A stretch of 64,000 nt of DNA, taken from contig NW_024704742.1 in assembly GCF_018977255.1 (NCBI RefSeq), forward strand, positions 103,728,001 through 103,792,000. The letters run 5' to 3'. Below the pieces are notes generated by a model. It worked only from the letters and a program-made list of their open reading frames with translations, did no database searches and was not told the origin of the DNA. The position numbers and the translations under genes are program-made. Each line of letters opens with the position of its first letter. Position 1 is the stretch's first letter. The DNA comes from Callorhinchus milii. Its lineage: Eukaryota. Below are positions 7,001 through 59,500 of this stretch, piece by piece.

Positions 7001-7687
7001 CCGGAACATCGCCAGACTACGGCATTACCTCACCCCTCACGCTGCTGAAACCCTGGTTCACGCCTTTGTCACCTCAAGGCTGGACTATGGGAACTCTCTC
7101 CTCGCCGGCCTTCCCGCCACCTCCCTCCACAAGCTGCAGGTCATTCAGAACTCTGCAGCTCGTGTACTGTCCCGCACCAGGCTTCGGGACCACATCACTC
7201 CCACCCTCGCTCGCCTCCACTGGCTCCCCATCCCCCAGAGGATTGATTTCAAGATCCTCATCCTCACCTACAAGGCCATTCACGGCCTTGCTCCCTCCTA
7301 CCTCTCCAACCTACTATCCCCCTACCTACCTGCCCGTACCCTCCGTTCCTCTGGCTCCGGTCTGCTCCACGTCCCCCGCCCCAACCGCCCTACCATCGGT
7401 GGTCGGGCCTTCAGCCTCTCAGCCCCAGGCTCTGGAACTCCATCCCCCAGTGCCTTCGCCGCCTCCTCCCTTTCCTCCTTCAAGGCCGGTCTCAAAACCT
7501 TTCTCTTTGACCGAGCCTTCAGCTCCCCTCTCGACTCTCTTCCCCCTCCTCGCTCCCTCCCTTCCCTCCCCTCACCCTGACCATTTCCCCCCTGCTCGGG
7601 TCATGACCCAACTGTGCAGCGCCTTGGGACGTCCTCCTGACGTGAAAGGCGCTTTATAAATGGAATCTTGTTGTTGTTGTTGTTGTT
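4002..7687 (+). mobile_element. Young, near full-length L2-clade LINE, single APE+RT ORF with several 1-nt frameshifts
   Basis: APE motifs (LQNVRSL, LTETWL, LGDFN, HPLDLV, SDH); RT motifs ([42 protein letters not shown] across a frameshift); L2-type C-terminus ([13 protein letters not shown]); 3' stem-loop and (TTG)n tail. Confidence 0.93.
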
Positions 7688-13448: not shown

Positions 13449-14581
13449 GCTGCATTTGCCTGGTTCGATTCCTATCTCTCTCACCGTCTCCACTTTGTTG
13501 CTTCTAACGGTTTCTCCTCCAGTCTCCGCACTGTCACGTCTGGCGTCCCCCAGGGCTCTGTCCTTGGCCCTCTCCTCTTTAATATCTATATGCTCCCCCT
13601 TGGTGACATCATCCGCAGACATGGGGTCAACTTCCACATGTATGCGGATGACACCCAACACTATCTTTCTGCCTCCACCCTCAACTCCAGGACCACTGCT
13701 GTCCTGACAGACTCCCTGTCAGACATCAAGTCCTGGATGAGGGCAAACTTCCTACAGTTGAATGTGAACAAGACTGAGGCCCTCCTGATTGGCTCGCGCC
13801 AGCGCCTCAGCACCTCAGGCTCTGGCAGCATCAACCTCCATGGTTGCACACTACAACTCACCAGCCAGTCAGGAGCCTCGGTGTCTTGTTCGACCCTCAA
13901 CTGTCTTTTCTTCCCCACATCCGAGCCATGACCCGCTCTGCCTTCCCTCACCTCTATAACATCGCCCGACTCCGCCACTACCTCACCCCTCAGGCCCCTG
14001 AAACTCTTGTTCATGCCTTCATCACCTCCAGGGTCAACTATGCAAACTCCCTGCTTGTCGGCCTTCCCAACTCCTCCCTCCACAGGCTGCAGATAATCCA
14101 GAACTCTGCAGCCCGTGTCCTCTCCTGCAGCAAACTCCGTGACCCCATCTGCCCCGACTCCATTGACTCCCTATCCTTCAGAGGATCCAGTTCAAGATCG
14201 TGGTCCTCACCTACAAAGCCCACCATGGCCTTGCCCCACCCTACCTCTGCGACCTCCAAACCCCCGCTCCTTCCGCTCAGCTGGCTCCGGCCTGCTCCAC
14301 GTCACCCGACCCACCCGCCCCACCATTGGCGGGAGAGCCTTCAGCCACTCTGGCCCCAAAATCTGGAATTCCATCCCCCAATCACTCCGCCTCGACCCCT
14401 CCTTAGCCTCCTTCAAGTCCCGCCTCAAAACCCTCCTCTTCAACAATGCCATCGGTCACCCCCCTTCCCCTCCCTTCTCCCCTCCTCACCCCAACTCAGG
14501 TCTGACATGCTGTACACTGTCCAGCGCCTTGGGACCTCCTCCCGACGTGAAAGGCGCTATACAAATGTAATCTTGTTGTTA
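13449..14581 (+). mobile_element. L2 3' fragment from the RT onward
   Basis: [24 protein letters not shown], 3' stem-loop and TTG tail. Confidence 0.9.
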
Positions 14582-14682
14582 AGATAGGCCAGGGTGATCC
14601 AACCTTTTGGCTGCCGCTGGTCGAATTACCTATCTGAGAAAGGTCTGCGGGCTGCATAAGTAATATTTTGTGTTTTCGTTCC

Positions 14683-38200: not shown

Positions 38201-41200
38201 CAACATGGGACCTGAACTCACAACTTTCTGATTGAGAGGCAAGAGTGCCACCAACAGAGCCAGGCAGATATCTAAAGTTCAGTCATTCCACATAACATGG
38301 GGTTTAATCAAAGGTATTACATTTTAAAATAAAGTGGCAACAAAGACTCTGTGATGCAAGGATGAGGGCTATTTGAACTCACCTCGTTGTTTCTCTTTTT
38401 TGTATTTGGACATTTCTTTGTTTGTGTATCCAGTAGAACGTAGGATGTCTTCTAAAAAGAGTTCCTTTACTTCAAATGGCCGTCCTTGAACTTATAAAAA
38501 AAAAAGCACCAAATATTAAAATACAAAGTTCAATCTATTATGCTCTAAAGTATTTGAGGTCCACTCTGTAAATTATACACACATTCTGTAAATACACATT
38601 TTTCCTTATCCCTTTATGATTTTTTCTAGGTCAGGCGAGTGGTTGACATGTGGAAACCCATCACCACGATGAAGAATATCCAAACCAGACAGAGTTCCAC
38701 GTGAGCGAGCCATCTACACTTTATTTCTGTGTCTGAAATGAAATGTGGACTCTCTCCCCAGACAGATGCACCCTGCTAACCTAATTACGGAAAGTATTTG
38801 GCACAGGTTGACAAGAGTTAAGTCTTAGAGTCCCCAAGTTCAACCAACTAAAACCACATTGCTTGCCAGTGAGAGCAGTCTGGCAAGCTTCCCACCACTT
38901 GTCCATCTAGTACAACACCCTACCAGTAAATATTTTAGCTTACAGGGTTAATAGGAGCCAAATGGGATGAATCTCTGTCCCTACCATGCTGGCTAGACTG
39001 GTAAGGCACTGCAGATCCCCTGGCTCTCGAACCAAATCGCTGAGACCATCACAGAGAGTCAACTCGGTTCCATTACATTCTGTTGCCATACAACACCCTA
39101 CCAGTAAATATTTTAGCTTACAGGGTTAATAGGAGCCAAATGGGATGAATCTCTGTCCCTACCATGCTGGCTAGACTGGTAAGGCACTGCAGATCCACTG
39201 GCTCTCGAACCAAATCGCTGAGACCATCACAGAGAGTCAACTCGGTTCCATTACATTCTGTTGCCATACAAGTCACTTGAAGCCAGTTCAGCTGCAAGGA
39301 GACCCCAATTACTAATATTTCCTCTCCTGGCAAGTATCTGGGGAGGGATTTTAATTTCTGTACACCTAACCCCCAAGTTAGCTCTCAATAGATGTTTTTA
39401 TTCTATGAAAATACTGCTTCACTGAAATGCTTGTGAAACAATTATATGTGATATAATTCATCTTTCTCCCTTGGCAAAGCAAATATCACAAAAGAAAACT
39501 TACCTAAAGGCAGACTGACAGTGAACAGATATTGAAGATCAGTTTTCACTTACTGTAAATGATCGGGCAGCCAGTAAAGTATCTGACAAAGAGATTAACA
39601 TCCAGAGCTGCACTAGAGAGAACAAGCCTAAGACATGGGTGTTTCTGGATCAGGTCCCTCAGCTTCGTCAATAAGAAATCACTAAAGCAGTCCCGCTCAT
39701 GCACTTCATCCTGTCACAAATGAAATAGGAGGAAAAAGGATGTTTTCTTAAGTGTTTTTACTGTATTTAATAAAATAAATATAATACAGTATCCAAGTCA
39801 GCTAGACAGTGTACAACCTGAATATTAATCACTACTATTAACTCTACTCATTTGATTCAGGAGGTGAATAAACTCAAAATCTCCCAGAAAGAGAAGGCTA
39901 CATTTTTAAATGAATTAAAGTACAGTAATGGAAGTAGGTTTCATCTTTTTGTTTCATACTATTTTGTTTCCTCAAATAAACAAAAAAACCCTGCTACTTT
40001 CTGATCAGTTCACGGACTTTCGATATTGCAACTACCTAAAGAAACCGCCTTCAGAATGTTCACCCACAAAATATAGTCACTCCACTCTCCAAAATATCCT
40101 GCAAAGCAGTTTGAGACATCCTCCTGATGTGAAAAGCACTATATCAAATGAAAGGTATTTTTTAAACCAATGAAATCAGTGATATTGTGTTTTGCTGTGA
40201 GTGATTATGCTAAGGAACCAAGTCAAAGAAATGACATTTGAGATGCCTAAGCCCAGGTATGGTCCCCCATACATGTGGAACTTCAGGAGACATCATCCGC
40301 AGACATGGGGTAAATTTCCACATGTATGCGGATGACACCCAACTCTATCTCTCTGCCTCCACCCTCAACTCCAGGATTACTGGCATCCTGACCGACTGCC
40401 TGTCTGACATCAAGTCCTGGATGAGAGACAACTTTCTCCAACTCAACGTCAGCAAGACCAAGGCCCTCCTGATTGGCTCACGCCAGCGCCTCTGCACCTC
40501 GGGTGCTGGCAGCATCAGCCTCCACGGCTGCACACTCAACCTCACTAAGTCAGTCAAGAACCTGGGTGTCTTGTTTGACCCTGAAGCGTCCTTTCTCCCC
40601 CACATCCGCGCCATGACTGGCACTGCCTACCACCACCGCCTACCACCACCTCCGCAACATTGCCAGACTCCGCCATTGCCTCACCCCTCAGGCTGCCGAA
40701 ACCCTCACCCACGCATTCGTCACCTCAAGGCTCGATTATAGGAACTCCCTCCTCATCGGCCTTCCCAACTCTTCCCTTCACAAGCTGCAGATCATCCAAA
40801 ACTCTGCAGCTCGTGTACTCTCGCACACCAGGCTCCACGACCCCATCACTCCCACCCTCGCCCGACTCCACTGGCTCCCCATCCCCCAGAGGATCGAGTT
40901 CAAGATCCTCGTCCTCACTTTCAAGGCTATCCATGACCTTGCCCCCTCCTACGTCTCTGAACTGCTGATTCCCTTCCAACCTGCCCGCTCCCTCCTTTCA
41001 GCGGGCTCCGGTCTGCTCCATGTCTCCCGCCCGACCCGCCTTACCATCGGTGGCCGGGCTTTCAGCCTCTCTGCCCCCACACTCTGGAACTCCATCCCAC
41101 AGTGCCTTTGCCTCGCTTCCTCCCTTGCCTCCTTCAAGGCCGGTCTCAAGACCCTGCCTTCCCTCACCCCTACACCACCCCACCCACATGCTCGGGCCCT

Positions 41201-44200
41201 GACACCTGACTGTTCAGCGCATTGGGACATCCTCCCGACGTGAAAGCCGCTCTATAAATGTAATTTTGTTGTTGTTGTTGTATGCTTGACTGGTTACAAG
41301 TGGATTTGATGGCAAATAAAACATCCAATGACTTTCTTGCTCCTGTGACTGAAATCATATTTAATCTGCATGTGATGCAGCCAATGATTTTCCTGTTTCT
41401 GATGTCATAAACAAGCTGCAGCCTTCTAATAACTCGTCCACAAAGCGACATCCAGTAAACTAACCGCAATGGGAATGGCAAGTGGCTTGAGTATTTGGGG
41501 TAAGTAAGTGATCGGAAACTGCTTCACATGGTGGATAATGACGAAGGTCATCTAAAAGAATCATTACATTAGAATATACAGCACAGAAACAGGCCATTCG
41601 GCCGAACTGGTCTTTGCCGGTGTTTATGCTCCACATGAGCCGCCTCCTGCCCTTCCTCAACTAAGCCTTCAAGCATAACCTTCTATTCTTTTCTCCCTCA
41701 TGTACCTATTTAGCTTTCCCTTAACTACATCTATGCTATTTGCCTCAACAACTCCTTGTGGTCGCATGTTCCACATTCCCACTACTCTCTGTGTGAAGAA
41801 ATTTCTTCTAACTTCCCTATTTGATTTATTTGTGACTATTTTGTATTGATGGCCCCTGGTTTTAGTCTTGAAATCATTTTTCTATTGTATCAAACTAGGT
41901 CAAAGGCAACAACTGATGAAAGATGCAGATTCATAAAGTTATGCACAGGGTAATGAGAATATATAGTTAGAACAGATTACCAGGAAGGATAGCTGATACC
42001 ATGTTATTAAGAAACAACTTGATGCTATATTTGGAAGAGGATAAGATTGGTATTCGAGGAGAATGAGATCCAGTTGACCAAAGTGACTTCATTTAAACCT
42101 CTTTCGCGATCTGAAGACTCTGGAGAAAGTGTGTTGCTGGGCTAGTATAACTGATGGAATATGTAAGGCAAATAGAAAGACTTAATTGCTCTGTCCAGCT
42201 AACAGAAGGTGGCATGACAGGAGGCGTGCACTATAGGACAATACTGTTACAATGAAATTGTCTGGTTCCATAAGATCAGACCCTCCACCTCCAGTTAAAA
42301 TGCAGCAGGAAAAGTGGCTTATTTTTGAGATATGAAGCAAGAGTCCAGTCATTGAGCCACCTGCTTGCTCTTTCATAACATTTCAGAATCGCCTGATATG
42401 GAAGTTCTACACAACGTGAAGCAGAACTGTTCTTAGCCCCTAGTAAAATCCTTGAGCACAGGTAATCTAAATCGAGTGACTCAGGCCTAATTCCTTTCCA
42501 ACTGGATACCACTGAGCAGAATTAACATGAGCTTTGAAGTCAATTTAGCCAGTAACAGCAATTCCACGATGTTACCAATGGAGGGGGCTACTATCCTTTG
42601 TATCACTTCTTCAGGACAGAAAAATCACTTTCATGTGCCTCGACAAATGCACAGCAGTATCATAGTGCAACATGGTTTCTTTTCAAAATTATAATGACAG
42701 CTTCTGAGCTTGGGAAAGTATAAGATCCAATTGAGTAGTCAACCACTCTCATATGTGCCAAGATAGATTAGAACACCAAAGCAGTGCATCACCAGGAAAC
42801 ATTGTAAACAACAACAAGATTACATTTGTATAGCATTCCAAAAGCAAATTTTCAAAATGCTTCTCCAAACATTAAAAATATATATCAATAAATTATGGCG
42901 GAAGAGGTTCAGATGATACAGTATTATTTGTAAAATCTTGAGAAGCAAAATTTTGAATTATTTTGCCTTGCAACTGTGTAATTGGCTGCCGTGTTTCGCC
43001 CACAAATATACTGTCAATTCACTTTACAGCATATTCTGTGAAGCGCTTTGAGAGGACAAGAAGACTTGAAAAGCACTATATCAAATGCAAGGATTATTAT
43101 TATTATTATATTTAACATTCAGGTACCCATTTATTTATGTTCAGGTACAAATGGATTTAAAGAAAATACTTCTGAGAAGCTAATAAACTTACCACTATTA
43201 CATGTGTCACAGCTGCTAAGGTACTGTCTCCAGCCATTAATGTTCGCAGTAGTACACCATTAGTACAGAATATCAGTGATGTCTTAGGAGAAACTCTAAA
43301 CAAAAAAAATCGTATTAGCATGGCTTGAATATCAAATGTACCTTTGTAGTAAGTGGATTTATTCATTTATACCTGCTCTCCAGTCGAATCTGATAACCAA
43401 TGGTCTGTCCAATCTTTTCGCCCCTCTCTGCAGCAACCCTTTCTGCCACAGCAATAGCAGCCAGTCGCCTTGGCTGAGTGCAAAATATACGGCAGGGTAT
43501 TCCATTCTTGTAGCAGTCATCCAAAAGAAATTGGGGGATCTGAAAATGCCAGGGTTAAATTAACAGATCTACTTTGATATTAGAAATAAACTCAAAACAA
43601 ATCTACATGCGCAAACTGCAGAACCATCAGATTGTGTGTTAATCACATTCTTATATGTATTTTTTCCATTTTGTAGATAAACTTTTGAACGTTAGCCCCA
43701 TTGTTGGCTGTAGCAAAATGAGCAAATAAGCAACCAAAGAGGGATACGGTACATGTTAAAAAAAATTGGTCAAACCCCATATGGAATGGGTGGAGTTCCC
43801 ATGATCTTATCACAAGAAGAATGTTTCTGCCCTTTAAAAAGTGAGTAATGAGTAACATTGGGTGCATGATCCTTTGTGCTGACAGGTATATACTGACTGG
43901 GTGCCAACGGATTATGTGACTGAAAAACGTACATGAAATAAACAACCACAGGAATAAAACTACTCAGAAATGAAGGGTTTTAATTATATTAACATTACAA
44001 TATAAAAAAATGAAATAAACGTTTTCAAGCCTTTAGCTATAAACAATCTATTCACTTCCCTGGCCTCTATACCTTTGGGATGCGGTTTACTATGTTTAAA
44101 ACTCTTCATGAACTTTTCTTTTTCTTCACAGCTTCTTTATTACATTCGGAAGGTGGAAGCAACTTTTTTTAACAAAATAAAATAATTTTCACAGCAAGTC

Positions 44201-47200
44201 TGGTAGATCAATTTTACTGCCAATCACATGATACAATCTAGAATATTGATTAATTCATATCATAGATGTGGTCTCATCAATCTCTAATTTGGAATTCCAG
44301 ATGAAAGTCCAGAATAGGGGCTGTGAATACCAATTAGTTTAAATCTCAGCTGGAGTGCCACAATTGGTCTTGGTACCCCTGGTGAGAAAGGTAAAATTAC
44401 TCATGGTTCCCACTGCTAAACGCTGTTCTGCTGGACATGAACAATAACTACTTGTATCCTCCTAGATGCCCATTTAAATGTTTTCCACCAGAATGAAAAG
44501 AAATAAAAATTCTTCAGTAGAAAAGGGAGAAAATTAGAGAAAATTTAGTAACTGGAGAAAATAAATTGGGAAGAAGCAAGAAACATAGTTATAAGGAGAA
44601 GTTGAATATAATACAGTAGAATCTAATTATAATGCAGTCCTCTGTGTCCAATAGGTCAGAAGCAACATTATAAACAAACCGCAAAGACTACCAAATTTCA
44701 GGCGATCAGATCGCGAATGATATCACTTCCTGCACTCTGCACAAGGGCACAATAAGCGCTACCAATGTCACTTCCTTCACAAACTTTCTGGGCACAGAAT
44801 GCATGTTCAATGTGCAGGATGAAACTTCAGCAACACTTTATGTGCTTATTGCACATCATTCAGGAAGTGATTTCAGGGGTAACCTTAAAGACTCAGAAAG
44901 CAGTATTTTTTTTAGCAAACTAGTCAACACTGGAAGACAGGTGAAATCCACTGAGCACAGATCCAGACAACACATGCGCAATAAGCGAGTCTGTACTATA
45001 TGGGGTCGTGGGGGGATGTATAATAACTATTTCCCCACTATGTTGAAGGCAAATTCAGTTTCATAAACAAACAGCATCCGCATAGAAAGAAAAAAAAATG
45101 AAAATACAGTAATTGCCGAACTGAACAATATGCTGAATGAAAATATGGCAGTGCACGGCAAACTGAATCATCTCTATGGTAAGACTCTTAGCGTTGCTAA
45201 AAAAAAAAATCCACCTCAGTCTAGTTTGAGTAGGATATGACAGATAATACTAATTCACTTTGAACGTAAAACAAATGCAGAATCAGTAATGAGAAAGCAA
45301 TCAGCCCCCTCCCTCCCTCTCTCTCCCTCCCTCCCTCCCTCCCTCCCTCTCTCCCCCCCCCCTTCCTCCCTCCCTCCCTCTCTCCCTCCCCCTTTTTTCA
45401 GTAATAGGAATCCATGACTTTAAATTTGGGAACTACAAACCCACATGAAGCACAACAATAGTGAGGTTTGCGGGACAAACAACTCGCGTTTTACACGATC
45501 GTCAGTCACGGCGGCTGTGATGTGACCGCATGACACGGCGCGCGCTGTTACTGCACCACATGGCCGCTTTGAGACCTGCACCAGCCATGGAGTTTGGACC
45601 TGAGTGAGTGAGTGAGTGAGTGAGTGAAGTTGCATTCAAAAAACCGCTTCTTCCCTCCTCGGCTCAAACCCCCGGGGGCTGATCGGAGCCCCGTGTTTGC
45701 GGGGAGAAACCTGCCCCTCGGCCCTGTTGGCAGTGCCCCCCCCCCCCCCCGGCCTGAGCCACGGGAGGGCTGTGAGATGTCAGAAGCCAACACCCTGCAG
45801 AAAGCCATTGAGATCGTGACTAAGGCCACGGAGGAGGACTATGCCCAGCACTACGAGGAGGCTTTGCGGCTGTACCTACACGCCGTCGAGTATTTCCTAC
45901 ATGTCATCAAGTACGAGGCTCCGGGCGGGAAAGCGAAGGACAGCATCCGCGTCAAATGCCAACAGTACATGGACCGCGCCGAGCAGCTCAAGGGCTACTT
46001 GAAACGCCGGGCCGGGCCGGGCCGGGCGGCGGGGAGAGAGGGGCCGCAGGCGGACGGCGGGAGCCACAGCGACGGCCACAGCGACAACGAGGAGAACTCG
46101 GAGAAGAAGAAGCTGCTGCAGCAGTTGGCGGACGTGATCCTGGTGGAGAAGCCCGACGTGCGGTGGGCCGATGTGGCGGGGCTGGAGTCGGCGAAGGAGG
46201 CGCTGAAAGAAGCTGCCATTTTACCCGTCAAGTTCCCTCACCTCTTCACGGGCAAGAGGACCCCTTGGCGTGGGATCCTGCTCTTTGGACCTTCCGGGAC
46301 CGGGAAGTCCTACCTGGCCAAGGCCGTGGCCACCGAGGCCAACAACTCCACCTTCTTCTCCGTCTCTTCGTCGGACCTCGTGTCCAAGTGGTTGGGGGAG
46401 AGCGAGAAGCTGGTGAAGAACTTGTTCGCGTTGGCGCGGCAGCACAAACCCTCCATCATATTTATCGACGAGGTGGACTCCCTGTGCGGATCCAGGAGCG
46501 AAAGGGAGAGCGAGTCTGCGAGGCGCATTAAGACGGAATTCCTGGTGCAGATGCAGGGCGTCGGGAACAGCAACGACGGCATCTTGGTTCTGGGGGCCAC
46601 AAACATCCCCTGGGTGTTGGATTCGGCTATTAGGAGGAGGTTTGAGAAGCGGATTTACATCGCATTGCCGGAAGAACTTGCCCGAATCCAAATGTTTAAG
46701 CTGAACATGGGAAGCACTGCTCACACGCTGACTCATCCGGACTTCCAAGAACTTGGGAGGAAAAGCGCTGGATATTCTGGGGCTGATATCACTATCATTG
46801 TACGTGAGGCTTTAATGGAGCCGGTCCGTAAGGTGCAAACCGCAACACATTTTAAACAGGTTTCTGGCCCATCCAGAACCAATCCTCATGACACAGTCCA
46901 TGATCTTCTAACCCCGTGTTCTCCCGGTGACCCAAATGCAATGGAGATGACGTGGATGGAAGTTCCCAGTGACAAACTTATAGAGCCGCCTGTTAAAATG
47001 TCTGACATGCTTTCTTCCCTATCGACCACAAGGCCCACTGTCAATGAAGAGGACCTTAAGAAATTAAAGAAATTCACAAAGGAGTTTGGTCAGGAAGGCT
47101 GAGGACCTGGCAAGGTTTATCACGATGGCTTGATGGGACTTCATTCAGCTGATTTCAAGTCATCTAACCAAACTAATACAGTCCCACAACCCAAACTGAG

Positions 47201-50200
47201 ACTGTCTGGAAATAGAGCAGACGTCCTCAAGATTCAATAAAGAAAGGCAGAATAGTAGAGTGCTGCTATTAGCTATGCTCATTATAAATAAAATCTGAAT
47301 TGTGTGCTTTGCTGAACATGTTTTTATTGTGATACCCATTAGCACAATCTTGCCAAACAGAGCAATTACAAGGGCAGAAATGTTACTGAATTAACTGGAA
47401 TTTTGCACAGGCTGTAAACTCCCAACAGGAGGTAAAATAAAGAATGGAATCAATCTGTTTCCATATTCCTATCAAGAGTTGCAGAGATTACGTGGTCGTC
47501 TTCTGCTTAATCAACAAATTAAATGAATGAAAATATTTTGATAATCGCAGGTTCACAATGAAAAGTGGTTTAACCACAATTGCACAGGGAAATTGAAACT
47601 TGGCACATGTTTGTTGCCCATGTGAATTTAAGAACAGCACTAATTTATCAAAACCAGTTAAAAAAAATATGCTTTTTTAAAAACGCGGCTGACATCACAC
47701 CAAAAAAAACCCAAAAGTACCATACAAACTTTATCTGAATATTTTCGTATAAACTATACAATAAAATTAGTAAATACAAATCAATAAATGTAATAAACCT
47801 AGAGTCACAAATACAGTGGAATCCACTTTAGCCGGATGTATCGGGGCAGGGAGTTTTGTCCGATTTACCTGGCATCCGCTAACCCAAGCGCTTACTTTTC
47901 ACTTCCCGCCATCTACTCTGCTGAGCGCCTCTTCCCTCCCGTTGCTGTTTACATTGGATGGGAAAGGGACCAATTAGCGTTGGTTCCAGAAGGTGTCAAC
48001 CACCTCGGAGCTGCCACTCGTCCCCGTCCACCAGATGAGGTCACTGCCCCCCACCTCCACCCCACCCATCCCCGAGCTGCTTGTGAATGGCTGTCAATCA
48101 CAATATGACTCCTCCCATTTCCATCCAGGTGCTGCTCATGGCTGAATGGAGCCGCGAGTGAAGACATTCAGCAGCGACCAGTGCGGCATTTTGCCCATAT
48201 TAACCGGATTTTCGCCTGAATTAACAGTCATATTCAAAACGGGTAAGAATACAAATGAATTGGGACCAGGCATTTCATCCAATTCACAGCAGGGTTTCAA
48301 GCAGATTCCACTAAAAATTCCAGTAAATCTCACATACGTCATATCAGTCAGGACCAAACATTTAATATGACTTACACAAAGTAAAAGCTTCAGGCAAACA
48401 TGCATAAATCGTATCATCCAGCCATTAAGTGTTCATGCAGCAACTGGCTAAAACTTATTTCTTGCGCTTGTTTAAAACGGAACACTGCTTATGCATACTT
48501 CAGTGCAGGCGGTAAGTCTGGTAGCTGCATTACGAGTTAGGAGATGATTTGCATTGGATGTAGGATTATTTGGGACCAAGAAACCTTTATGATTTAGCCA
48601 TTTATACACCTTATAAAATATAACTAGTGCAAAGAAATCCAAGCGTATTTTGGAAGGAACCTGAATGGGACTCGGGTGCATGTACAACTTAGGCAATTAC
48701 ACAATTCGTACAGAGACAATTTATGTGAGTTTTACTGTATACATTATTAATATAAGAGTAGAGATGGGTCAAACCTGTGTAGTTTTTCCAGATCCTGTTT
48801 CTCCAACTATTAAAACCACTCTGTTGTCTTTAATGATTTTTACTGTTTCATCTTGTTTTTCAAAGACGGGTAAAGACTGTCTAAAGGCATCCAATTCAGA
48901 TTCTCCTCGTTTGGGTGGAACTTGAGGAATGCCATTGTTGAGTCTACCACTTGTCCTATTCATTTCTCGGTTATTTTCTGTGGAATGCATAAAGCTTAAT
49001 CAAGGTACAAATTTGAAAGTCAACGCAATACCTATTTATGGCATATTTAACAGATGTGAAAATATGAAATAATTTATGTACTGAACCAGGAACATTGGTA
49101 CAACTAGCTATGACAAGTTTAAGCACAATTTCTCATCAGGAATTCAGACTCCAAACTCCAGCCTCCAGACTCATTAATGTAACCACATTTCTATGTTGAA
49201 AATAAGTCTTAAAAACAATCCATAAACAGCAAATAATAGTTATGTAGTAAAATCATTGCATTTTAATCCTAAGGCAAAACAGTGCATATTTTTGCCCCAA
49301 AGACAGCAACATTTAGTTCAGAAATGTAATATTATTTTTTATATTATTGTGTAAATTGCATGTCATTTTACATTTTACTTTTGCATAGCAGTTTGATTTG
49401 TGATAATTCTGCATCTGTTTGTAAACAGTACAATTTTGGACTAGACTATTGCACATAGTCAAAATGCAAGTTCGATACAGATCTTTTCATTTTTGGCTTG
49501 TGATGTGGAGGCATTAATTATTAAGATTTGTAATGATATTCATAAGCAATACATTTAAAAAATCAGAAATTCCAAGTCTTGATCCCATCTCATGCCTTAT
49601 TTGATTTTGGATTTGAGGACAACCCGCTGTAATGTGAGAAACATTTTGGAGGGATATTTCCACCATTAAAGATGTTTTAAAAAAGTACCAATATGTATTA
49701 AATCTACAAAAACTCAATACATTTTTTAAAAATGCCTACCTGGTTCAACAGTTAATGCATTCCCACGTTCAGTCTTAGGTAAAAGATCTGTGCGTTCCTT
49801 ATTGGTTACAGGAAACCTCTGAATTAGATTGTGTATGGCATGTTTCATACTGTGAGTTAAAGTGCAGGTCATGACAGTGTGGGCCATCTCAGAGCCATCT
49901 TTTTTCTTTATAGTGAGGAATCTATGTGCTCCTTTTCTGAAAAAAAAATCAGTGACTTTTCATTTCTTTGAAAATTTTACAAGACAAAAGGCTAGAGATA
50001 AAAGAGCAGTCTGGCTCAGTTTGTAGCACATCTATTAGAAGGTTGTGGGTTCAAGCTCTACGTTATGACTTGGAACTCACAGTCTAGCCTTGATACTCCA
50101 ATACAGTGCCGGAGGTGTCCTGCATCGTTTTAAGTACCACTAACCCAAGATCCCATCAGGCTGTTCAGGTGGACATTAAAGATCCTATAGTAGTACTACT

Positions 50201-53200
50201 CAAAACAAGAAGGAGAATCACGAGAATCCCTGTGTCTTGGCCAAGAATCCCCTAAATAAATTTGTTTGACAGCTGTGTGATATTAAGCTACCGCATTTTC
50301 TTACCGATACGGTAAAGCCTGTGAAGTGCTTTGAGACACCCTCCAAACTTGAAAAACACTAAGCTAAAGGCCATTATTATTATTAATAATGATAATAAAG
50401 ATTTTTTTATAAAGAAACTTTTAAAACAATTTCCAATCATTGCTCACAAATATTGAAAGTCACAAGTGTTCAAAAATTGTACTTCATGACTTTGAGCTGG
50501 CCATAGAGCAAAGAGGTTTCCTCCAGCCAATTTGTGAAGGCCCAGACCAGGCACTGAAGTGAATTTTTGGCAATGGGAGAAGTAGCTTCCGAGATAGAAA
50601 AATTGTTCTACTGAGCAAAGCAGATTCAAAGAAATGAAGGAAAATCACTTCTCCCAAACTATGTGTGCCTCAGCATTTGCACTAATGGAGAGAAAACTAA
50701 TGCACATAAACATCACCAGTTTGCAACTCACCCTTTGCTTTTCGAAATCAGGCCAAGGGACTGGGCAAGGCGATGAATAAAGGCTCTTTCCGTACTGGTG
50801 AGGGAAGATGGAAATTCCATTTCTAGGAAAAAGAAAATGGATGTTATCCCCAAAGATAATACTATCTTGAATGAATCTGATATAAATCAAATGTAGAATT
50901 ATGAGGCTTCACCTCAATTTACTTTCAAGTCATCAACCAACTTGGCAAATACCTAAACTAACCATAGGATTTGTACAATTTTCAATATACATCTTGTGAT
51001 CAATCCAGGTAGCTAATGTATGAAATTGGAAAAATAAAATGCTTTAACATCAAATGGAGCTTGAAAATAGTAAATTGTCCAACTTGAACTTGAATCAATA
51101 GAATCAGAATTGACTGGTGCACATAATCACAACATTCTTGTTTTCCTCGGTTGCCCAGTTTTCAACAAATAAATAGGGTAAAGTATTCAATAAAACCTTA
51201 ACTTAACAATTTGAACACATAAACATTTTCTGTCTCAGTCTTGAGCATCTTAGCTCTTAATACTCTAAAATAAATACACTCTAAAATAAATAGAATTGAA
51301 CCAGAATAAAGGGATGAATGGACACATACAGACAACGACCAGCAAAAGAAACAAAAAACACAATTCTGCCCCAGCAATATTAGGAATTATATAGTTTAAA
51401 AATAGACAATAGTTATTTCTTGGTAGGAATCTGCTCAGGATTCAAAGTTCTGGATGTCACTGCACAGATATCTCAAGTATAATAAGCGTTTCACAGGATA
51501 TATTGTAAAGTGGACTGACTATATTTTATAGGTGAAACTTAATGATGTACAAACACAGTTCCTCGTCACTGTCCAACTTTTTTGTGTTCCTTTCTTTGAA
51601 GTTTCTGAGCGATGTATCACATTGCAATTAACACACCGGGCAAAACAACCTACCCCAACAAAACTACGTTTCAATCTAGCAACAAGTAATAATTTTTCTT
51701 TGCTCCCTTTGGGAAGCAACTTGTCTTTTAATATCTAATCCTCTCAAACAACTTGGGCATGATCAGAAATCCTTCAAGGGAATCACAGTTCAAATTCATC
51801 TAAACCAATCTCCTTGTACTCTCACTCTTTGTAATCTCGTGTACTCTCACACACCAGGCTCCGCGACCCCATCACTCCCACACTCGCCCGACTCCACTGG
51901 CTCCCCATCCCCCAGAGGATTGAGTTCAAGATCCTCGTCCTCACCTTTAAGGCCATCCATGGCCTTGCCCCCTCCTACCTCTCTGACCTGCTGACTCCCT
52001 ACCAACCTGCCCGCTCCCTCCGCTCATCAGGCTCCAGCCTGCTCCATGATTCCTGCCCGACCCGCCCTACCATCGGTGGCCGGGCTTTCAGCCTCTCTGC
52101 CCCCACACTCTGGAACTCCATCCCACGGTCCCTTCGCTTCGCTTCCTCCTTTGCCTTCTTCAAGGCCGGACTCAAGACCTTTCTCTTCGATCGTGCCTTT
52201 GGTCTCCCTCCTACCTCTCTGCCTTCTCTCACCACGACACCACCCCTACCCCACGCTCGAGCCCCGACACCTGACTGTTCAGCGCTTTGGGACGTCCTCC
52301 CAACGTGAAAGGCACTCTATAAATGTAATTTTGTTGTTGTTGTTTGTTCTTTATATTTTTCAGCAATATTTACCGCTCTATAACAACAACAAAATTACAT
52401 TTGTATGGCGCCTTTCATGTTGAAAGGAAGTCCTAGTGAGTTGTATACTAATAGGAAATAATATTAGGAAAATGCATCCATGCCAGACAAAAGTTAAACT
52501 GGTATTAAAATTAGGGATAACTACAATTTTAACTTATTTCTCCACTAAGATGATTTTCAAAATAGCAGCCAAATCTTGTGGGAAAGATCAAAGTTGCCTC
52601 ACAATAAACCATGGCATACATCTATTAAAACATCTTTGCTTTCAATTGTGGTGAGTAAATGTACAAAATCTCACTTTATACGACTTCTAAACCAAATACA
52701 ACTATAGGTATAAGAACATAAGAATTAGGAGCAGGAGTAGGCCATTCGGCCCCTCGAGCCTGTGCCCCGCCATTCGATAAGATCATGGCTGATCTTCAGA
52801 CCTAACTCTAATTACCTGCCCTTTCCCCATATCCCTTAATCCCTCTATTTTTTAAAAATCTATCAGTCTCAGCCTTGAAGATGTTCAAGGACTGAGCATC
52901 TGCAGCCTTCTGGGGTAGTGAATTCCATAAATTCACTACCCTCTGAGTGAAGAAATGTTTCCTCAACTCTGTTCTAATTTTAAGACTGTGACCCCTGGTT
53001 ATAGATGCTCCTACCAGGGGAAACAGACCCTCAGTGTCTACTTTATCCAGCCCTTTAAGATTCTTATATGTTTCAATAATATCCCCCCCAATTCTTCTGT
53101 ACTGTAGAGAATATAGCCCTAGTTTATTCAGCCTATCCTCATAGGTCAGTCCCCTCATCCCAGGAACTAACCGAGTGAATCTACGCTGCACCCCCTCTAG

Positions 53201-55979
53201 GGCAAGTATGTCCTTTTTTAAATAAGGAGACCAAAACTGCACACAATACTCTAGGTGCGGTCTCACCAAGGCCCTATACAGTTGCAGCAAGACTTCCCTA
53301 CTCTTGTACTCTAAACCTTTTGCAATGAACGCTAACATGCCGTTCGCCTTCTTAGTTGCTTGCTGCACCTGCAAACTAACTTTTTGAGACTGGTGTACAA
53401 GGACACCCAAATCCCTCTGCACACTAACACTATCTAATCTCTCCCCCTCTAGAAAATAATCTATTTTTCTATTTTTTCTACCAAGGAGAATAACTTCACA
53501 CTTCCCCACATTAAATTCCATCTGCCACCTACTCGCCTACTCCCCTATCTATATGCCATTGCAATCTTTTTGCATCATCCTCAGAGCTTACTCTCCCACC
53601 TAGTTTAGTGTCATCTGCAAATTTAGATACATTACATTCAATGTCCTCGTCCAGATCATTGATGTAAATTGTAAATAGCTGAGGCCCAAGCACTGATCCT
53701 TGTGGCACTCCACTAGTCACATCCTGCCAATTCGAGAATGACCCGTTTATCCCTACTCTCTGTTTTCTACCCGTTAGCCACTCTTCAATCCACGCTAATA
53801 TGTTCCCATTAATCCCGTGGGCCTTAACCTTGTGAAACAACCTTTTGTGTGGCACTTTGTCAAATGCCTTTTTAAAATCAAATCTAAATATACTACATCT
53901 AGTGGTTACCCCTATCTAACCTGCTAGACACATCTTCAAAAAACCCTAAAAAATTAGTTAAGCATGACTTCCCTTTTGTAAAGCCATGTTGACTCTGCCT
54001 AATCTTGTTATGGTCTTCCAGAAATCCCATAACAACATCTTTAATTAAGCACTCAAGAATTTTCCCTACCACTGATGTCAGACTAACTGGTCTATAGTTC
54101 CCCATCTTTTCTCTCCCACCCTTCTGAAATAGTGGTATCACGTTTGCAATCTTCCAATCAATGCGAACCGTTCCGGAATCCAGAGAATTTTGGAAGATCA
54201 AAGACAAGCCATCCACCTCTTTTAAAACCCTAGGATATAGGCCATCAGATCCAGAAGATTTATCAGTTTTAAGACCTGACAGTTTACCTAAAACCATTTC
54301 TTTACTAATATTAATTCCCCCAAGTTGCTCGCTAACATTGTCTTCTTGGTTCCCCTCTATTCTTGGTAGGTTTTCAGTGTCTTCTAAGGTGAAGACAGTA
54401 GCAAACAACAACAACAACAACAACAAGATTCCATTTATTGAGCGCCTTTCACGTCGGGAGGACGTCCCAAGGCGCTATACAGTTGGGTCAGGACCCGAGC
54501 AGTGGAGAAATGGTCAGGGGGAGGGAAGGGAGGGAGCGAGAGGGGAGCTGAAGGCACGGTCAAAGAGAAAGGTCTTGAGACCAGCCTTGAAGGAGGAAAG
54601 GGAGGAGGCAAGGCGCAAAGTACTTGTTTAATGACTCTGCCATGACTTTGTCCCCTACTATAATTCCCCCCGTCTTTGCCTGTAGCGGACCCACATTTAC
54701 CTTTAACAGCCTCTTCCTCTTTATATATTTATAAAAACTCTTGCAGTCTGTCTTTATGTTCTTCGCTAGTTTGCCCTCATATTCCATTTTCTCCCTCTTA
54801 ATCACTTTTTTGGTTCTCCTTTGTTGATCCCTAAAGTTCTCCCAATCCTCGGGTTTACTACTCATCTTAGCTGTTTTATAGGCTTCTTCCTTTAACTTTA
54901 TACTTTCCCTAACTGCTCTAGTTAGCCACGGTTGGGCCACCTTCCCGTGGCATTCTTATTCCTCAAAGGAATATGTGCTCGCTGGGAATTTTCCACTATC
55001 TCCTTAAACGTCTGCCATTGCTGGTCTACCGTCAGATCCTTAAGTCTAATTTCCCAGTTTATTTTGGCTAAATCCTCTTTCATACCAGCAAAATTGGCTC
55101 TACTTAAATTTAAAACCTTTGCTTCGGATTTAACTACTTCTCCCTCTAACGTAATGCTAAATTCCATCATATTATGATCACTTTGCCCTAGAGGAGCCTT
55201 AATTTCCAGTTTGCTGATCAACCTTGCTTCATTGCACAAAACAAGGTCTAATATGGCCTGTTCTCTGGTTGGCTCCTCGGGATACTGATCAGGATAATTA
55301 TCCCTAATACATTCTATAAACTCTTCCTCTATCATACTTTTCCCAATTTGGTTGCCAATCTATGTGCAGATTAAAATCACCCACAATTAATGTTTTTCCT
55401 TGACTACATGCTCTGCTAATTTCCTGATTTATACCTTGAGATACTGTGACTGCTGTTCGGGAGTCTATAAACTACTCCCACTAGAGTTTTCTGCCCCTTG
55501 TTATTACGTAACTCTACCCATACTGACTCCACTTCCTGCTTTTCTGATTTAAAATCTTTCCTCTCTATTGTTTTTATCCCATCCTTTATTAGCAGGGCCT
55601 TATATTCATCCCATTTAGCTATGAATTTAAATCAATCCTAGGAGGATAAATTGTTTGAACAGTAACAAAAAAATAAAAGCTGAACTTTATCGAAACAGTA
55701 TTAGGAGATTCATTGTTGTTGAAACAATTTCACTTGAATAATGCAGAGCAAAACAGAACTGGTAAAAACAATTCACATCAGTAGTGAATAAACATACTTT
55801 ATAAAATTATTTAATTTACCTTTCTGATCACCATAACGAAATCTCTCAAGGGCAATATTAACAGCAATTTTTACTTCTTCATCAATCCGGATATCTTTAA
55901 ATCCTTTAGGTTTGGAGGCAGCAGCCTGACTTGACTGGGCGCTGCCAGGCCGTGGGGACGCACTGGTAGATCTTGACAT
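17229..55979 (-). CDS. YTHDC2: YTH domain-containing protein 2 (3'-5' DExH RNA helicase, m6A reader); whole spliced CDS span, 30 coding exons, about 1427 aa
   Basis: Exons are colinear with vertebrate YTHDC2: R3H ([16 protein letters not shown]...[14 protein letters not shown]), Walker [15 protein letters not shown] box, ankyrin insert, [20 protein letters not shown]2/OB region and YTH ([19 protein letters not shown]). All introns are GT-AG with consistent phases, except a 1-nt shortfall in exon 24. Confidence 0.97.
17310..17850 (+). mobile_element. CR1 3' fragment in the last YTHDC2 intron
   Basis: [13 protein letters not shown] and R(V)VEIWNSL remnants; CR1-type 3' UTR. Confidence 0.8.
18094..18198 (-). 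CDS. YTHDC2: YTHDC2 coding exon 29
   Basis: [40 protein letters not shown] acceptor, GAG|GTAAGC donor. Confidence 0.88.
18680..18862 (-). CDS. YTHDC2: YTHDC2 coding exon 28 (YTH domain)
   Basis: [30 protein letters not shown]...[21 protein letters not shown] / GTGGGG. Confidence 0.94.
19323..19526 (-). CDS. YTHDC2: YTHDC2 coding exon 27 (YTH domain)
   Basis: [42 protein letters not shown]...[13 protein letters not shown] / GTAAAC. Confidence 0.94.
19620..19860 (-). mobile_element. Old CR1 3' fragment
   Basis: SRTRGHRL...[14 protein letters not shown]. Confidence 0.75.
20038..20200 (-). CDS. YTHDC2: YTHDC2 coding exon 26
   Basis: [21 protein letters not shown]...[20 protein letters not shown] / GTAAAC. 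Confidence 0.9.
20965..21900. repeat. Unclassified dispersed repeat, interrupted by a SINE
   Basis: Homologous to 22285-22390, 26800-26980, 38630-39320 and 56745-57000 (reverse). Confidence 0.7.
21499..21855 (+). mobile_element. tRNA-derived SINE with extra central segment
   Basis: GGTTAGAGCACTCGC head, B-box-like GGTTTGATTCC, (TTA)n tail. Confidence 0.85.
22055..22230 (-). mobile_element. SINE internal fragment
   Basis: Reverse complement of 21586-21755. Confidence 0.75.
22698..22996 (-). CDS. YTHDC2: YTHDC2 coding exon 25
   Basis: [27 protein letters not shown]...GIGQRPRP...[13 protein letters not shown] / GTAGAG. Confidence 0.92.
23876..23984 (-). CDS. YTHDC2: YTHDC2 coding exon 24 (apparent 1-nt deletion frameshift at about 23905)
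   Basis: [25 protein letters not shown] then, in a shifted frame, [15 protein letters not shown] / GTACAT; 109 nt where the flanking phases require 110. Confidence 0.88.
24318..24533 (-). mobile_element. Deu-domain-like SINE fragment
   Basis: Homologous to 8672-8890. Confidence 0.7.
24779..24971 (-). CDS. YTHDC2: YTHDC2 coding exon 23 (OB-fold region)
   Basis: [41 protein letters not shown]...QEPSSR; GTCAG / GTAACA. Confidence 0.93.
25261..25466 (-). CDS. YTHDC2: YTHDC2 coding exon 22
   Basis: [34 protein letters not shown]...[21 protein letters not shown] / GTATGC. Confidence 0.93.
26370..26775 (+). mobile_element. CR1 RT fragment
   Basis: KFADDTNL...RLQEDI...[16 protein letters not shown]. 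Confidence 0.8.
27533..27659 (-). CDS. YTHDC2: YTHDC2 coding exon 21
   Basis: [47 protein letters not shown] / GTAGGC. Confidence 0.93.
28348..28620 (-). CDS. YTHDC2: YTHDC2 coding exon 20 (HA2)
   Basis: [30 protein letters not shown]...[16 protein letters not shown] / GTCAGT. Confidence 0.94.
28703..28822 (-). CDS. YTHDC2: YTHDC2 coding exon 19
   Basis: [45 protein letters not shown] / GTAGGA. Confidence 0.93.
29298..29403 (-). CDS. YTHDC2: YTHDC2 coding exon 18
   Basis: [40 protein letters not shown] / GTGCAG. Confidence 0.93.
30493..30575 (-). CDS. YTHDC2: YTHDC2 coding exon 17 (motif VI start)
   Basis: [32 protein letters not shown] / GTAAAG. Confidence 0.93.
30655..30818 (+). mobile_element. 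5'-truncated SINE abutting the exon 16 donor
   Basis: SINE 3' half with ATTATTA tail. Confidence 0.8.
30828..30908 (-). CDS. YTHDC2: YTHDC2 coding exon 16 (motif V)
   Basis: [32 protein letters not shown] / GTAACG. Confidence 0.94.
30991..31078 (-). CDS. YTHDC2: YTHDC2 coding exon 15
   Basis: [34 protein letters not shown] / GTAAGT. Confidence 0.93.
31481..31789 (-). mobile_element. Young tRNA-derived SINE
   Basis: Full head with CTCGC-CTTGCAA-GCGAG anticodon arm (TGC, Ala-like) and tail. Confidence 0.9.
32019..32115 (-). CDS. YTHDC2: YTHDC2 coding exon 14
   Basis: [36 protein letters not shown] / GTAAGT. Confidence 0.93.
33302..33480 (-). CDS. YTHDC2: YTHDC2 coding exon 13
   Basis: [15 protein letters not shown]...[25 protein letters not shown] acceptor, GTAAAT donor. 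Confidence 0.9.
34079..34144 (-). CDS. YTHDC2: YTHDC2 coding exon 12 (ankyrin repeat)
   Basis: [26 protein letters not shown] / GTAAGT. Confidence 0.9.
34430..34678 (+). mobile_element. L2 3' fragment with internal deletion
   Basis: [21 protein letters not shown] tail. Confidence 0.8.
34930..35056 (-). CDS. YTHDC2: YTHDC2 coding exon 11 (ankyrin repeat)
   Basis: [46 protein letters not shown] / GTAAGA. Confidence 0.93.
35272..35407 (-). CDS. YTHDC2: YTHDC2 coding exon 10
   Basis: [50 protein letters not shown] / GTGAGT. Confidence 0.92.
35577..36020 (-). mobile_element. L2 3' fragment
   Basis: [11 protein letters not shown]...TLWNSIP...[13 protein letters not shown]-repeat tail on the plus strand. 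Confidence 0.8.
37271..37416 (-). CDS. YTHDC2: YTHDC2 coding exon 9
   Basis: [12 protein letters not shown]...[19 protein letters not shown] / GTAATT. Confidence 0.9.
37858..38262 (-). mobile_element. Deu-domain-like SINE
   Basis: Homologous to 8672-9046 plus SINE tail. Confidence 0.7.
38383..38490 (-). CDS. YTHDC2: YTHDC2 coding exon 8
   Basis: [35 protein letters not shown]; poly-T then AAG acceptor, GTGAGT donor. Confidence 0.92.
38911..39271. repeat. 178-bp tandem duplication (two copies)
   Basis: Units start at 38911 and 39089; one mismatch seen; TACAA at both junctions. Confidence 0.92.
39554..39710 (-). CDS. YTHDC2: YTHDC2 coding exon 7 (DEVH box)
   Basis: [46 protein letters not shown] / GTAAGT. 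Confidence 0.93.
40287..41281 (+). mobile_element. L2 3' fragment, about 1 kb
   Basis: [17 protein letters not shown]...LGVLFDPE, 3' stem-loop and (TTG)n. Confidence 0.9.
41570..41870 (-). mobile_element. CR1 3' fragment
   Basis: CR1-type 3' UTR (GGCCATTCGGCC) and [15 protein letters not shown] remnant. Confidence 0.7.
42970..43110 (+). mobile_element. 5'-truncated SINE
   Basis: SINE 3' part with (TTA)n. Confidence 0.8.
43193..43295 (-). CDS. YTHDC2: YTHDC2 coding exon 6
   Basis: [39 protein letters not shown] / GTAAGT. Confidence 0.93.
43373..43539 (-). CDS. YTHDC2: YTHDC2 coding exon 5
   Basis: [60 protein letters not shown] / GTATAA. Confidence 0.93.
45305..45392. repeat. (CCCT)n polypyrimidine tract upstream of the VPS4-like gene
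   Basis: Direct sequence. Confidence 0.85.
45465..46620 (+). promoter_or_regulatory. CpG island over the promoter and 5' half of the VPS4-like gene
   Basis: Dense CpG and high GC in an otherwise AT-rich intron, starting about 300 bp upstream of the ATG. Confidence 0.7.
45601..45627. repeat. (TGAG)n microsatellite
   Basis: Six to seven units, direct sequence. Confidence 0.9.
45777..47102 (+). CDS. VPS4A: Intronless VPS4A-like AAA-ATPase (ESCRT-III disassembly), 441 aa, probable retrogene nested antisense in a YTHDC2 intron
   Basis: Uninterrupted ORF from ATG 45777. MIT domain ([16 protein letters not shown]...[16 protein letters not shown]), Walker A GPSGTGKS, pore loop [13 protein letters not shown], Walker [20 protein letters not shown], beta-domain LTPCSPGDP and C-terminal [13 protein letters not shown] and [14 protein letters not shown] favour VPS4A over VPS4B. 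Confidence 0.93.
47236..47292 (+). terminator. Candidate polyadenylation signals of the VPS4-like gene
   Basis: AATAAA at 47236 and 47287, 134-185 nt after the stop; more occur near 47437, 47760 and 47783. Confidence 0.45.
47814..48313. mobile_element. Probable Tigger/pogo-like non-autonomous DNA transposon (MITE)
   Basis: Imperfect terminal inverted repeats TA|CAGTGGAATCCACTT ... AAGCAGATTCCACTA; no transposase. Confidence 0.55.
48775..48977 (-). CDS. YTHDC2: YTHDC2 coding exon 4 (Walker A)
   Basis: [18 protein letters not shown]...[20 protein letters not shown] / GTTTGA. Confidence 0.93.
49740..49936 (-). CDS. YTHDC2: YTHDC2 coding exon 3
   Basis: [19 protein letters not shown]...[26 protein letters not shown] / GTAGGC. 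Confidence 0.92.
50011..50388 (+). mobile_element. Deu-domain-like SINE
   Basis: tRNA head, CAGGTGGACATTAAAGATCC core, ATT tail. Confidence 0.7.
50732..50822 (-). CDS. YTHDC2: YTHDC2 coding exon 2 (R3H)
   Basis: [35 protein letters not shown] acceptor, GTGAGT donor. Confidence 0.93.
51838..52345 (+). mobile_element. L2 3' fragment
   Basis: Close to the 3' half of 40287-41281; (TTG)n tail. Confidence 0.88.
52711..55600 (-). mobile_element. CR1-clade LINE, 5'-truncated, about 2.7 kb, frameshifted and interrupted by an L2
   Basis: APE end (EPTR..AILDLVL, SDHN), [50 protein letters not shown]; tandem TTCTTATG tail at 52711. Confidence 0.92.
54406..54614 (-). mobile_element. Young L2 3' end inserted into the CR1
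   Basis: (CAA)n tail on the plus strand; 5-bp TSD GCAAA at 54401-54405 and 54615-54619. Confidence 0.9.
55820..55979 (-). CDS. YTHDC2: YTHDC2 coding exon 1
   Basis: [10 protein letters not shown]...[26 protein letters not shown]; donor AG|GTAAAT; acceptor TTTCTTAG 7 nt upstream of the ATG. Confidence 0.93.
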
Positions 55980-59230: not shown

Positions 59231-59500
59231 CAGAGAGGGAGGGAGAGAGAGGGAGGAGGAGAGGAGAGGAAGATGGATAGAGAGGGAGGAGAGAGGGAGG
59301 GAGGAGAGGAGAGAGGGAGGGAGGAAGGGAGGGAGGAGAGAGAGAGAGGGAGGGAGGGAGGAGAGAGAGAGAGGGAGGGAGGGAGGGAGGGAAGATGGAT
59401 AGAGAGGGAGGAAGGAGAGAGAGAGAGGGAGGGAGGGAAGATGGATGGAGAGGGAGAGAGGGAATGGTCAAAAACCCAGAGGATAAAGAGAGAGGAGAAA
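59230..59500. repeat. GA-rich purine tract adjacent to the CpG island
   Basis: Imperfect GGGA/GAGA repeats with a recurring GAAGATGGAT unit. Confidence 0.85.

Follow-up and report, generated by a model that had tools for sequence, protein, structure and literature searches.

We describe here a locus in the cartilaginous fish Callorhinchus milii (RefSeq assembly GCF_018977255.1, contig NW_024704742.1, forward-strand positions 103,728,001 to 103,792,000), a stretch of 64,000 nucleotides that we refer to as the window and from whose first letter all positions are counted unless a contig is given. The minus strand of the window carries exons of YTHDC2, and a 5235-bp intron of that gene, between coding exons 4 and 5, contains an intronless VPS4 open reading frame (ORF) in the opposite orientation. 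The initial annotation had placed a VPS4 gene antisense between precisely these exons, and the host exons, their spliced joints, and the YTH match agree with that placement. The features of the nested gene and its surroundings are as follows, with X1 and X4 denoting sequencing runs whose contigs cover it.

45777 to 47102, plus strand: intronless VPS4 ORF, 441 amino acids and a stop (reading frame, Pfam, structure alignment, and motifs)
45440 to 46700, no strand assigned: CpG island over the putative promoter, the 5' untranslated region (UTR), and the first ~900 nt of the ORF (GC 0.603, observed/expected CpG ratio 0.85, 97 CpG)
45430 to 45776, plus strand: likely 5'UTR, minimum extent (X1 contigs 45430-45594 and 45634-46973, from which the strand is not readable)
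47103 to 47662, plus strand: likely 3'UTR with a putative 3' end (X1 contigs 47071-47252 and 47235-47662; X4 contig 47077-47243)
43540 to 48774, minus strand: host intron (YTHDC2 exon 4 to exon 5) holding the VPS4 gene (exon 4 contigs run into 43510-43539)

The ORF spans 1326 nt with no internal stops or frameshifts, and its product carries a complete set of Pfam domains, including MIT (PF04212, 3.4e-23, residues 7-72), AAA (PF00004, 5.2e-40, residues 167-296), AAA_lid_3 (6.4e-10), and Vps4_C (PF09336, 6.5e-31, residues 378-438), as expected from the earlier description of an intact, full-length VPS4 frame without introns. Residues 5-441 align with solved mouse and human VPS4B structures (E values of 3e-215 and 1.4e-213), and the alignment to the VPS4B chains is gapless through residues 350-441, the region of the beta-domain and C-terminal helix. 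The sequence features of a VPS4 protein are all present: an MIT domain, a single AAA cassette, Walker A (GPSGTGKS at residue 171) and Walker B (IIFIDEVD at 227), pore loop 1 (KWLGESEK at 204), the sensor-1 Asn (LGATN at 272), arginine fingers (RRRFEKR at 286), the beta-domain, and the C-terminal helix; GYSGADI at residue 332 and the sensor-2 string are also found. The motif names and definitions (Walker A as GxxxxGK[ST], Walker B as hhhhDE, pore loop 1 as KW[LM]GE, sensor-1, and RRRF fingers) are those that we take to apply. The only change among the Walker A and B, pore loop 1, sensor-1, arginine-finger, and sensor-2 strings is that of GPPGTGKS to GPSGTGKS, and among 36 VPS4 rows this substitution (P173S) is seen in the window copy alone. 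We note that the protein is identical to a predicted sequence already in the protein collection (P0001), and a gene model thus exists. The window has no ambiguous bases (N), and there is one variant within the ORF, a synonymous 46379 C>G at Leu201 (runs X1 and X7).

A six-frame search of the 991.5-Mb assembly returns the window locus as one unbroken match of 441 residues and the only intronless VPS4, together with two VPS4 loci matched exon by exon (C14:57296-64793 and C2:49483299-49498532) and more distant AAA genes. The gene on contig C14 was reconstructed as 10 coding exons from KAIDL onward, with a translation 100% identical to P0035, a UniRef entry labelled Callorhinchus milii, and the gene on contig C2 likewise as 10 exons, in matching phases. 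In the tree described below the C14 gene falls with VPS4A and the C2 gene with VPS4B, and we refer to them as the fish's own VPS4A and VPS4B. The window copy is a third VPS4 paralog in this genome. This bears out the proposal that it is an extra gene, and the search suggested for a spliced parent does recover an intron-containing VPS4A, on C14. The ORF is colinear across all 10 junctions, and 10 of the 10 reconstructed intron positions of the fish's own VPS4A and VPS4B are absent from it. Because all of the reconstructed parental introns are missing, retroposition is the natural origin of the copy, and it most plausibly arose in this way. Neither a poly(A) remnant nor a target-site duplication was found in the flanks, which contain only short A-rich or low-complexity direct repeats (e.g., a 12-nt pair at 45202 and 47702), as had already been remarked from the sequence; loss of these hallmarks would be expected at the age estimated below.

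Two other observations come from the same genome. Exon 9 of the fish's own VPS4B (C2:49482500-49501000) has a GC-AG donor (ATG|GCAAGT), whereas its VPS4A counterpart is GT-AG. Two further AAA ATPase matches, at C2:64853470-64854222 (47% identity) and C6:30041030-30041779 (37%), sit in uninterrupted frames of 733 and 778 amino acids, respectively.

The copy and the fish's own VPS4A share 77.0% amino acid and 73.2% nucleotide identity, with a nonsynonymous divergence (dN) of 0.147 and a synonymous divergence (dS) of 1.4 to 2.7. Amino acid identity to the fish's own VPS4B is 72.3% (dN of 0.19 to 0.20, dS saturated), compared with 79.5% between VPS4A and VPS4B themselves (dN of 0.13 to 0.145, dS saturated); the YN00 and some of the NG86/LWL85 dS estimates are undefined under this saturation. 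The dN/dS ratio of the copy is nonetheless roughly 0.05 to 0.15 with synonymous sites saturated (dS of at least 1.2), and in the AAA core dN is 0.053 against a dS of at least 1.5. Fourfold-degenerate sites differ at 87 of 145 positions between the copy and VPS4A and at 88 of 153 between VPS4A and VPS4B. The C-terminal third, where base composition is unshifted, gives 26/50 against the fish's own VPS4A, 29/48 against its VPS4B, and 33/53 between VPS4A and VPS4B, with a dN/dS of ~0.15 relative to VPS4A.

The distribution of the replacements is similarly informative. In the 36-row alignment, 217 columns show no variation among the 35 other VPS4 proteins, and the copy retains 207 of these, the changes being L65M, P85A, Q114L, A120V, V147A, P173S, N243R, H310N, L311M, and D436E. 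Of the 99 differences from the fish's own VPS4A, only 10 lie in invariant columns, against an expectation of one-half (binomial p of 1.3e-17). When neutral substitutions were simulated from the VPS4A coding sequence to half the observed divergence (13.4%), 0.4% of 20000 trials kept an open frame; at the full observed nucleotide divergence of 26.8%, 0/20000 did so. A relative-rate count with a beetle outgroup assigns 46 unique changes to the copy and 36 to the fish's own VPS4B (chi2 of 1.2). As judged from these sequence comparisons, the copy is old, its synonymous sites being saturated, and under purifying selection. The initial annotation had read the many substitutions in a frame that remains open as an old insertion under purifying selection and had called for dN/dS relative to the parent to be compared with 1; the ratio is far below that value, and the saturated dS and retained invariant columns fit the same reading.

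We regard X1 and X2 (study P1) and X4 (study P2) as RNA-derived runs because they contain spliced YTHDC2 joints that are missing from the DNA-type run X7. All three have contigs over the VPS4 gene, at 45430-45594, 45634-46973 (1379 nt), 47071-47252, and 47235-47662 in X1, at 45738-45898 and 45880-46973 in X2, and at 46393-46973 and 47077-47243 in X4. Contigs of the mature host mRNA link exon 4 to exon 5 and bypass the VPS4 stretch. RNA-type cover is missing at 44000-44467, 45170-45403, and 47744-47977 (X2 and X4 end earlier), although neither such contig holes nor contig depths (5.9-12.9 on the ORF, 7-74 on host exons) count as evidence, and the break at 46973 is likewise uninformative as it occurs in every run, including X7. 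The VPS4 copy appears to be transcribed, and this transcription may be independent and from the sense strand. The germline bias and the use of YTHDC2 chromatin raised in the initial annotation would be hypotheses only.

A putative promoter lies at the 5' end of the gene. The CpG island that had been noted upstream does cover the 5' flank, but it also extends over the first ~900 nt of the ORF. The GC content at third codon positions (GC3) is 0.72 in the copy versus 0.48 in the fish's own VPS4A and 0.38 in its VPS4B, and ranges from 0.76 to 0.90 over codons 1-300 and from 0.42 to 0.50 over codons 301-441, in agreement with the extent of the island. Downstream, the AATAAA signal reported previously occurs three times (47236, 47287, and 47436). 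In or beside the putative promoter and 5'UTR there are a (CCCT)n tract (45295-45395), a (GTGA)n tract (45595-45633), and a poly-C run (45736-45751), the last of which differs in length by 3 and 4 bases between X7 and X1.

The parent of the copy was examined in a tree of 36 VPS4 rows (LG+C20+F+G4). The copy lies within the vertebrate VPS4 clade (support of 100/99) but outside VPS4A plus VPS4B (88/80), and the topology is the same when N-terminal and linker columns are removed (95/82). Its end branch is long (0.45 versus a median of 0.063), and treekit marks the placement of the row as unsure. Approximately unbiased (AU) tests reject a sister relationship to the fish's own VPS4A (p of 0.007). 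Placement with the two chondrichthyan VPS4A rows gives a p of 0.028, which weakens to 0.078 without the N-terminal and linker columns, and a chondrichthyan-specific origin may therefore still apply. Placement with gnathostome VPS4A (p of 0.144), all VPS4A (p of 0.164), or all VPS4B (p of 0.163) is rejected in no case. At the 14 columns dividing gnathostome VPS4A from VPS4B, the copy agrees with A at nine and with B at four, and shows another residue at one; when polarized on invertebrate rows, it carries 3/7 of the A-derived and 1/7 of the B-derived states.

A parent in the VPS4A lineage is weakly favored by these sequence data, because identity (77% vs 72%), dN (0.147 vs 0.199), and derived states (3/7 vs 1/7) all lean toward VPS4A. 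The original suggestion of a retroposed VPS4A mRNA is thus upheld in part, with introns missing and identity, dN, and derived states pointing to VPS4A, but the tree puts the copy outside both clades and the AU test rejects neither. Similarly, the VPS4A/VPS4B tree that was proposed as a check puts the copy firmly inside vertebrate VPS4, but joins it with support to neither the A nor the B clade. Given the grouping at 100/99, we reject a foreign or viral origin.

The age of the copy may fall anywhere from the holocephalan stem to the early vertebrate divergence of VPS4A and VPS4B. [quoted passage not shown] Examples of such a role would be a tuned or hexamer-modifying ATPase in particular tissues, or defense against enveloped viruses.

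We propose that a spliced VPS4 mRNA, with the VPS4A lineage as its likelier though unsettled source, was reverse transcribed and inserted antisense into YTHDC2 intron 4; copies of long interspersed nuclear elements (LINEs) with endonuclease and reverse transcriptase frames sit in the same window. The copy would have gained or created its CpG-island promoter after insertion, and purifying selection would have retained it over hundreds of millions of years. The encoded protein most likely acts like VPS4, in ESCRT-III disassembly, and its motifs predict ATPase activity. Its MIT domain would engage ESCRT-III subunits by their MIM motifs, and the AAA cassette (Walker A Lys, Walker B Asp-Glu, KWLGE, sensor-1 Asn, and arginine fingers) would form a hexamer that draws these subunits through its pore, with the beta-domain and C-terminal helix serving in Vta1/LIP5 cofactor binding and oligomerization. 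Polymers of ESCRT-III could be disassembled by the copy alone or in mixed hexamers with VPS4A/B, and the changes of the Walker A Pro to Ser, the pore-loop-2 Asn to Arg, and the MIT Leu65 to Met may tune kinetics or partner choice.

The copy is probably a real, functional, and ancient retrogene, and its persistence as a third VPS4 paralog of this kind is the best explanation of the locus and one that we consider likely. Several points weigh against it. Ten invariant residues are altered in the copy compared with 0 to 5 in six control rows, and the changes in Walker A (P173S) and pore loop 2 (N243R) mean that activity could be altered. The relative-rate count gives the copy 46 unique changes and the fish's own VPS4A 20 (chi2 of 10.2), and the dN/dS values are rough given the saturated dS and the shift in GC3 relative to VPS4A. 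The contigs are unstranded, RNA libraries can contain DNA or pre-mRNA, and the runs were picked because they contain this stretch and come without usable tissue labels. The loss of the poly(A) tract and target-site duplication makes intron absence the single line of evidence for retroposition. Among the best 120 of 7939 matches in 5.8 billion clustered proteins, the closest protein of another species is 77% identical over the full length, and with residues 296-441 as the query the highest identity within the best 120 of 1434 is 74%; the search covered these clustered proteins and the fish's own genome, and unannotated orthologs may exist elsewhere. As no ortholog was found, selection on the copy's own branch cannot be measured.

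Some of the same observations could be read differently. The retrocopy might have been kept as a neofunctionalized or interfering VPS4, a modulator that poisons or retunes VPS4A/B hexamers or acts in particular tissues, with a logic like that of retroCHMP3. The 10 replacements at positions that do not vary in the other 35 rows (P173S, N243R, and L65M among them), the long branch, and the reported precedent of retroCHMP3 as an antiviral ESCRT retrocopy (10.1101/2020.08.30.273656, 10.1101/2021.04.27.441704) are in its favor, but the copy is full length, unlike the truncated retroCHMP3. Moreover, GPSGTGKS and IIFIDEVD keep both the Walker A Lys and the Walker B Glu, and the rate of the copy is not significantly different from that of the fish's own VPS4B; we consider such a modulator improbable. 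The classic dominant-negative forms of VPS4 have lost the Walker A Lys or the Walker B Glu, and this class is ruled out by the presence of both. A different history, in which the copy is a DNA-level paralog, such as a third product of the early vertebrate genome duplications, and had its introns removed later by conversion with its own cDNA, would account for the maximum-likelihood position at the base of vertebrate VPS4A plus VPS4B with and without linker columns, for synonymous divergence from VPS4A nearly at the A-B level (87/145 vs 88/153 fourfold sites), and for the missing poly(A) tract and target-site duplication. It is very unlikely, however, as all 10 intron positions common to VPS4A and VPS4B would have to vanish at once, antisense nesting in the intron of another gene is a typical insertion signature, and the basal placement, on a row that treekit marks as unsure, is an expected long-branch artifact.

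Against the functional retrogene that we favor, it could also be argued that the copy is a processed pseudogene still open by chance, with RNA cover derived from YTHDC2 pre-mRNA or DNA carry-over. The contigs are indeed unstranded, low-depth pieces are also present in the flanking intron at 44632-45072, and no ortholog is at hand to prove conservation. The constraint data nevertheless bring this reading close to refutation, with a frame that is open despite 26.8% nucleotide divergence when no neutral trial kept it so, substitutions that shun invariant columns, a dN/dS far below 1, and intact catalytic motifs, and we give it very little credence. An assembly artifact or foreign DNA in the intron is the least probable account of all. 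Contigs fail to bridge the low-complexity flank at 45295-45633 or the segment at 47663-47868, but the window is without N, the protein groups with vertebrate VPS4 and with no foreign group, and X1 contigs that start in the 3' region of the ORF reach 47662, in unique 3' flanking sequence. In addition, 94 to 96% of the sampled words are present in four DNA-type runs from a 2025 study, although these runs may be the source of the assembly itself.

Vertebrates are usually credited with two VPS4 genes, a pair whose partial redundancy attracts interest at present. The copy resembles VPS4A and VPS4B in length and in the order of MIT, linker, AAA, beta-domain, small AAA, and C-terminal helix. It differs from them in having no introns (VPS4A and VPS4B have at least 10), in its location inside YTHDC2, in its GC-rich 5' two-thirds, and in its GPSGTGKS Walker A, 10 changed invariant sites, and long branch. 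Classical vertebrate retrogenes nested in introns are intronless, have a spliced parent elsewhere, and usually show a poly(A) tract and target-site duplication as hallmarks; the copy shares with them the lack of introns, the presence of spliced genes elsewhere, the antisense position in an intron, a CpG-rich 5' end, and purifying selection, whereas its poly(A) tract and target-site duplication are erased and its parent is not confidently assignable. A full-text literature search of main texts found no description of a VPS4 retrogene or an intronless VPS4, and there is no mention of VPS4 in PMC3747384, from a search on Callorhinchus milii and retrogenes.

A close parallel is retroCHMP3, a name for CHMP3 (ESCRT-III) retrocopies of New World monkeys and mice, which are reported to inhibit virus budding (10.1101/2020.08.30.273656, 10.1101/2021.04.27.441704). 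It is likewise a retroposed ESCRT-pathway gene kept in a vertebrate lineage, and it is expressed, as the window copy appears to be, but it is a truncated ESCRT-III subunit, recent and recurrent, whereas the window copy is a full-length, ancient ATPase with its catalytic residues kept. A truncated ESCRT-III inhibitor of the retroCHMP3 type is ruled out here, since the copy is a full-length VPS4 and not an ESCRT-III subunit. The copy would be a further ESCRT-pathway retrogene beside this single well-studied case. An intronless third VPS4, long conserved in a cartilaginous fish that evolves slowly, amounts to a natural experiment, showing which VPS4 residues are able to change in a kept enzyme (the Walker A Pro, pore loop 2, and MIT Leu65), and if it predates the chondrichthyan crown it would be among the oldest retained vertebrate retrogenes. 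Its significance is bounded in that it is one lineage-restricted paralog of a non-model species with its function read from sequence.

The exons of the host gene are as follows.

55822 to 55977, minus strand: YTHDC2 exon 1, coding part from Met (loose-end letters behind 50824 correspond to 55822-55851; the translation ends in ERFRYGDQK)
50732 to 50824, minus strand: coding exon 2, R3H (joint at 50732; Pfam R3H 2.7e-07)
49740 to 49936, minus strand: coding exon 3 (joints 48977>49740 and 49936>50732)
48775 to 48977, minus strand: coding exon 4, DEAH helicase P-loop (joint 48977>49740; DEAH helicase matches in the PDB)
47869 to 48032, minus strand: possible extra or alternative exon, or alternative 5' start (an 865-nt X4 contig begins here)
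43373 to 43539, minus strand: coding exon 5, helicase motif Ia, IPQFLLDD...TQPRR (start at 43539 shown; low end approximate)
19323 to 19487 and 18680 to 18871, minus strand: YTH-domain exons (PF04146 at C1:103747323-103747487 and 103746680-103746871, C1 being the contig of the window)

The order of R3H, DEAH helicase, and YTH domains on one strand fits YTHDC2, and the first YTH exon (19323-19487) matches the YTH domain of human YTHDC2 at 1.1e-31 versus ~1e-13 for YTHDC1. Exons 2 to 4 are connected by the joints 48977>49740 and 49936>50732, which have CT..AC ends (GT..AG on the minus strand) and are present in X1, X2, and X4 and not in X7. Contigs of the exon at 48775-48977 (X1 and X2) extend into letters exactly matching 43510-43539; the donor of exon 5 comes from translation, without a spliced joint. 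A minus-strand Pfam scan of 127 of the 138 stop-to-stop frames of at least 45 amino acids from 36 kb on (the 11 antisense frames within 45639-47089 were omitted) yielded only R3H, weak DEAD/P-loop, and LINE reverse transcriptase and endonuclease matches, the remaining host exons being too short to score. The segment at 47869-48032 is GC rich, lies just 3' of the VPS4 gene and between it and YTHDC2 exon 4, and is joined to exon 5 (43539).

Several other elements lie in the window. LINE-type copies with endonuclease and reverse transcriptase frames are located at 4297-7659 and 13360-14587 on the plus strand and at 1223-1585 and 52811-55631 on the minus strand. The one at 4.3-7.7 kb is nearly full length but frameshifted, and accounts for a GC-rich, C-skewed block at 4-8 kb, and an RVT_1 match (4e-19) at 53532-53915 falls within YTHDC2 intron 1. 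Another YTHDC2 intron has a 178-bp unit in two tandem copies with 99% identity (38911-39271), and a purine-rich (GAGG)n-like array of ~230 bp (59233-59464) sits in a GC-rich block upstream of YTHDC2 exon 1.

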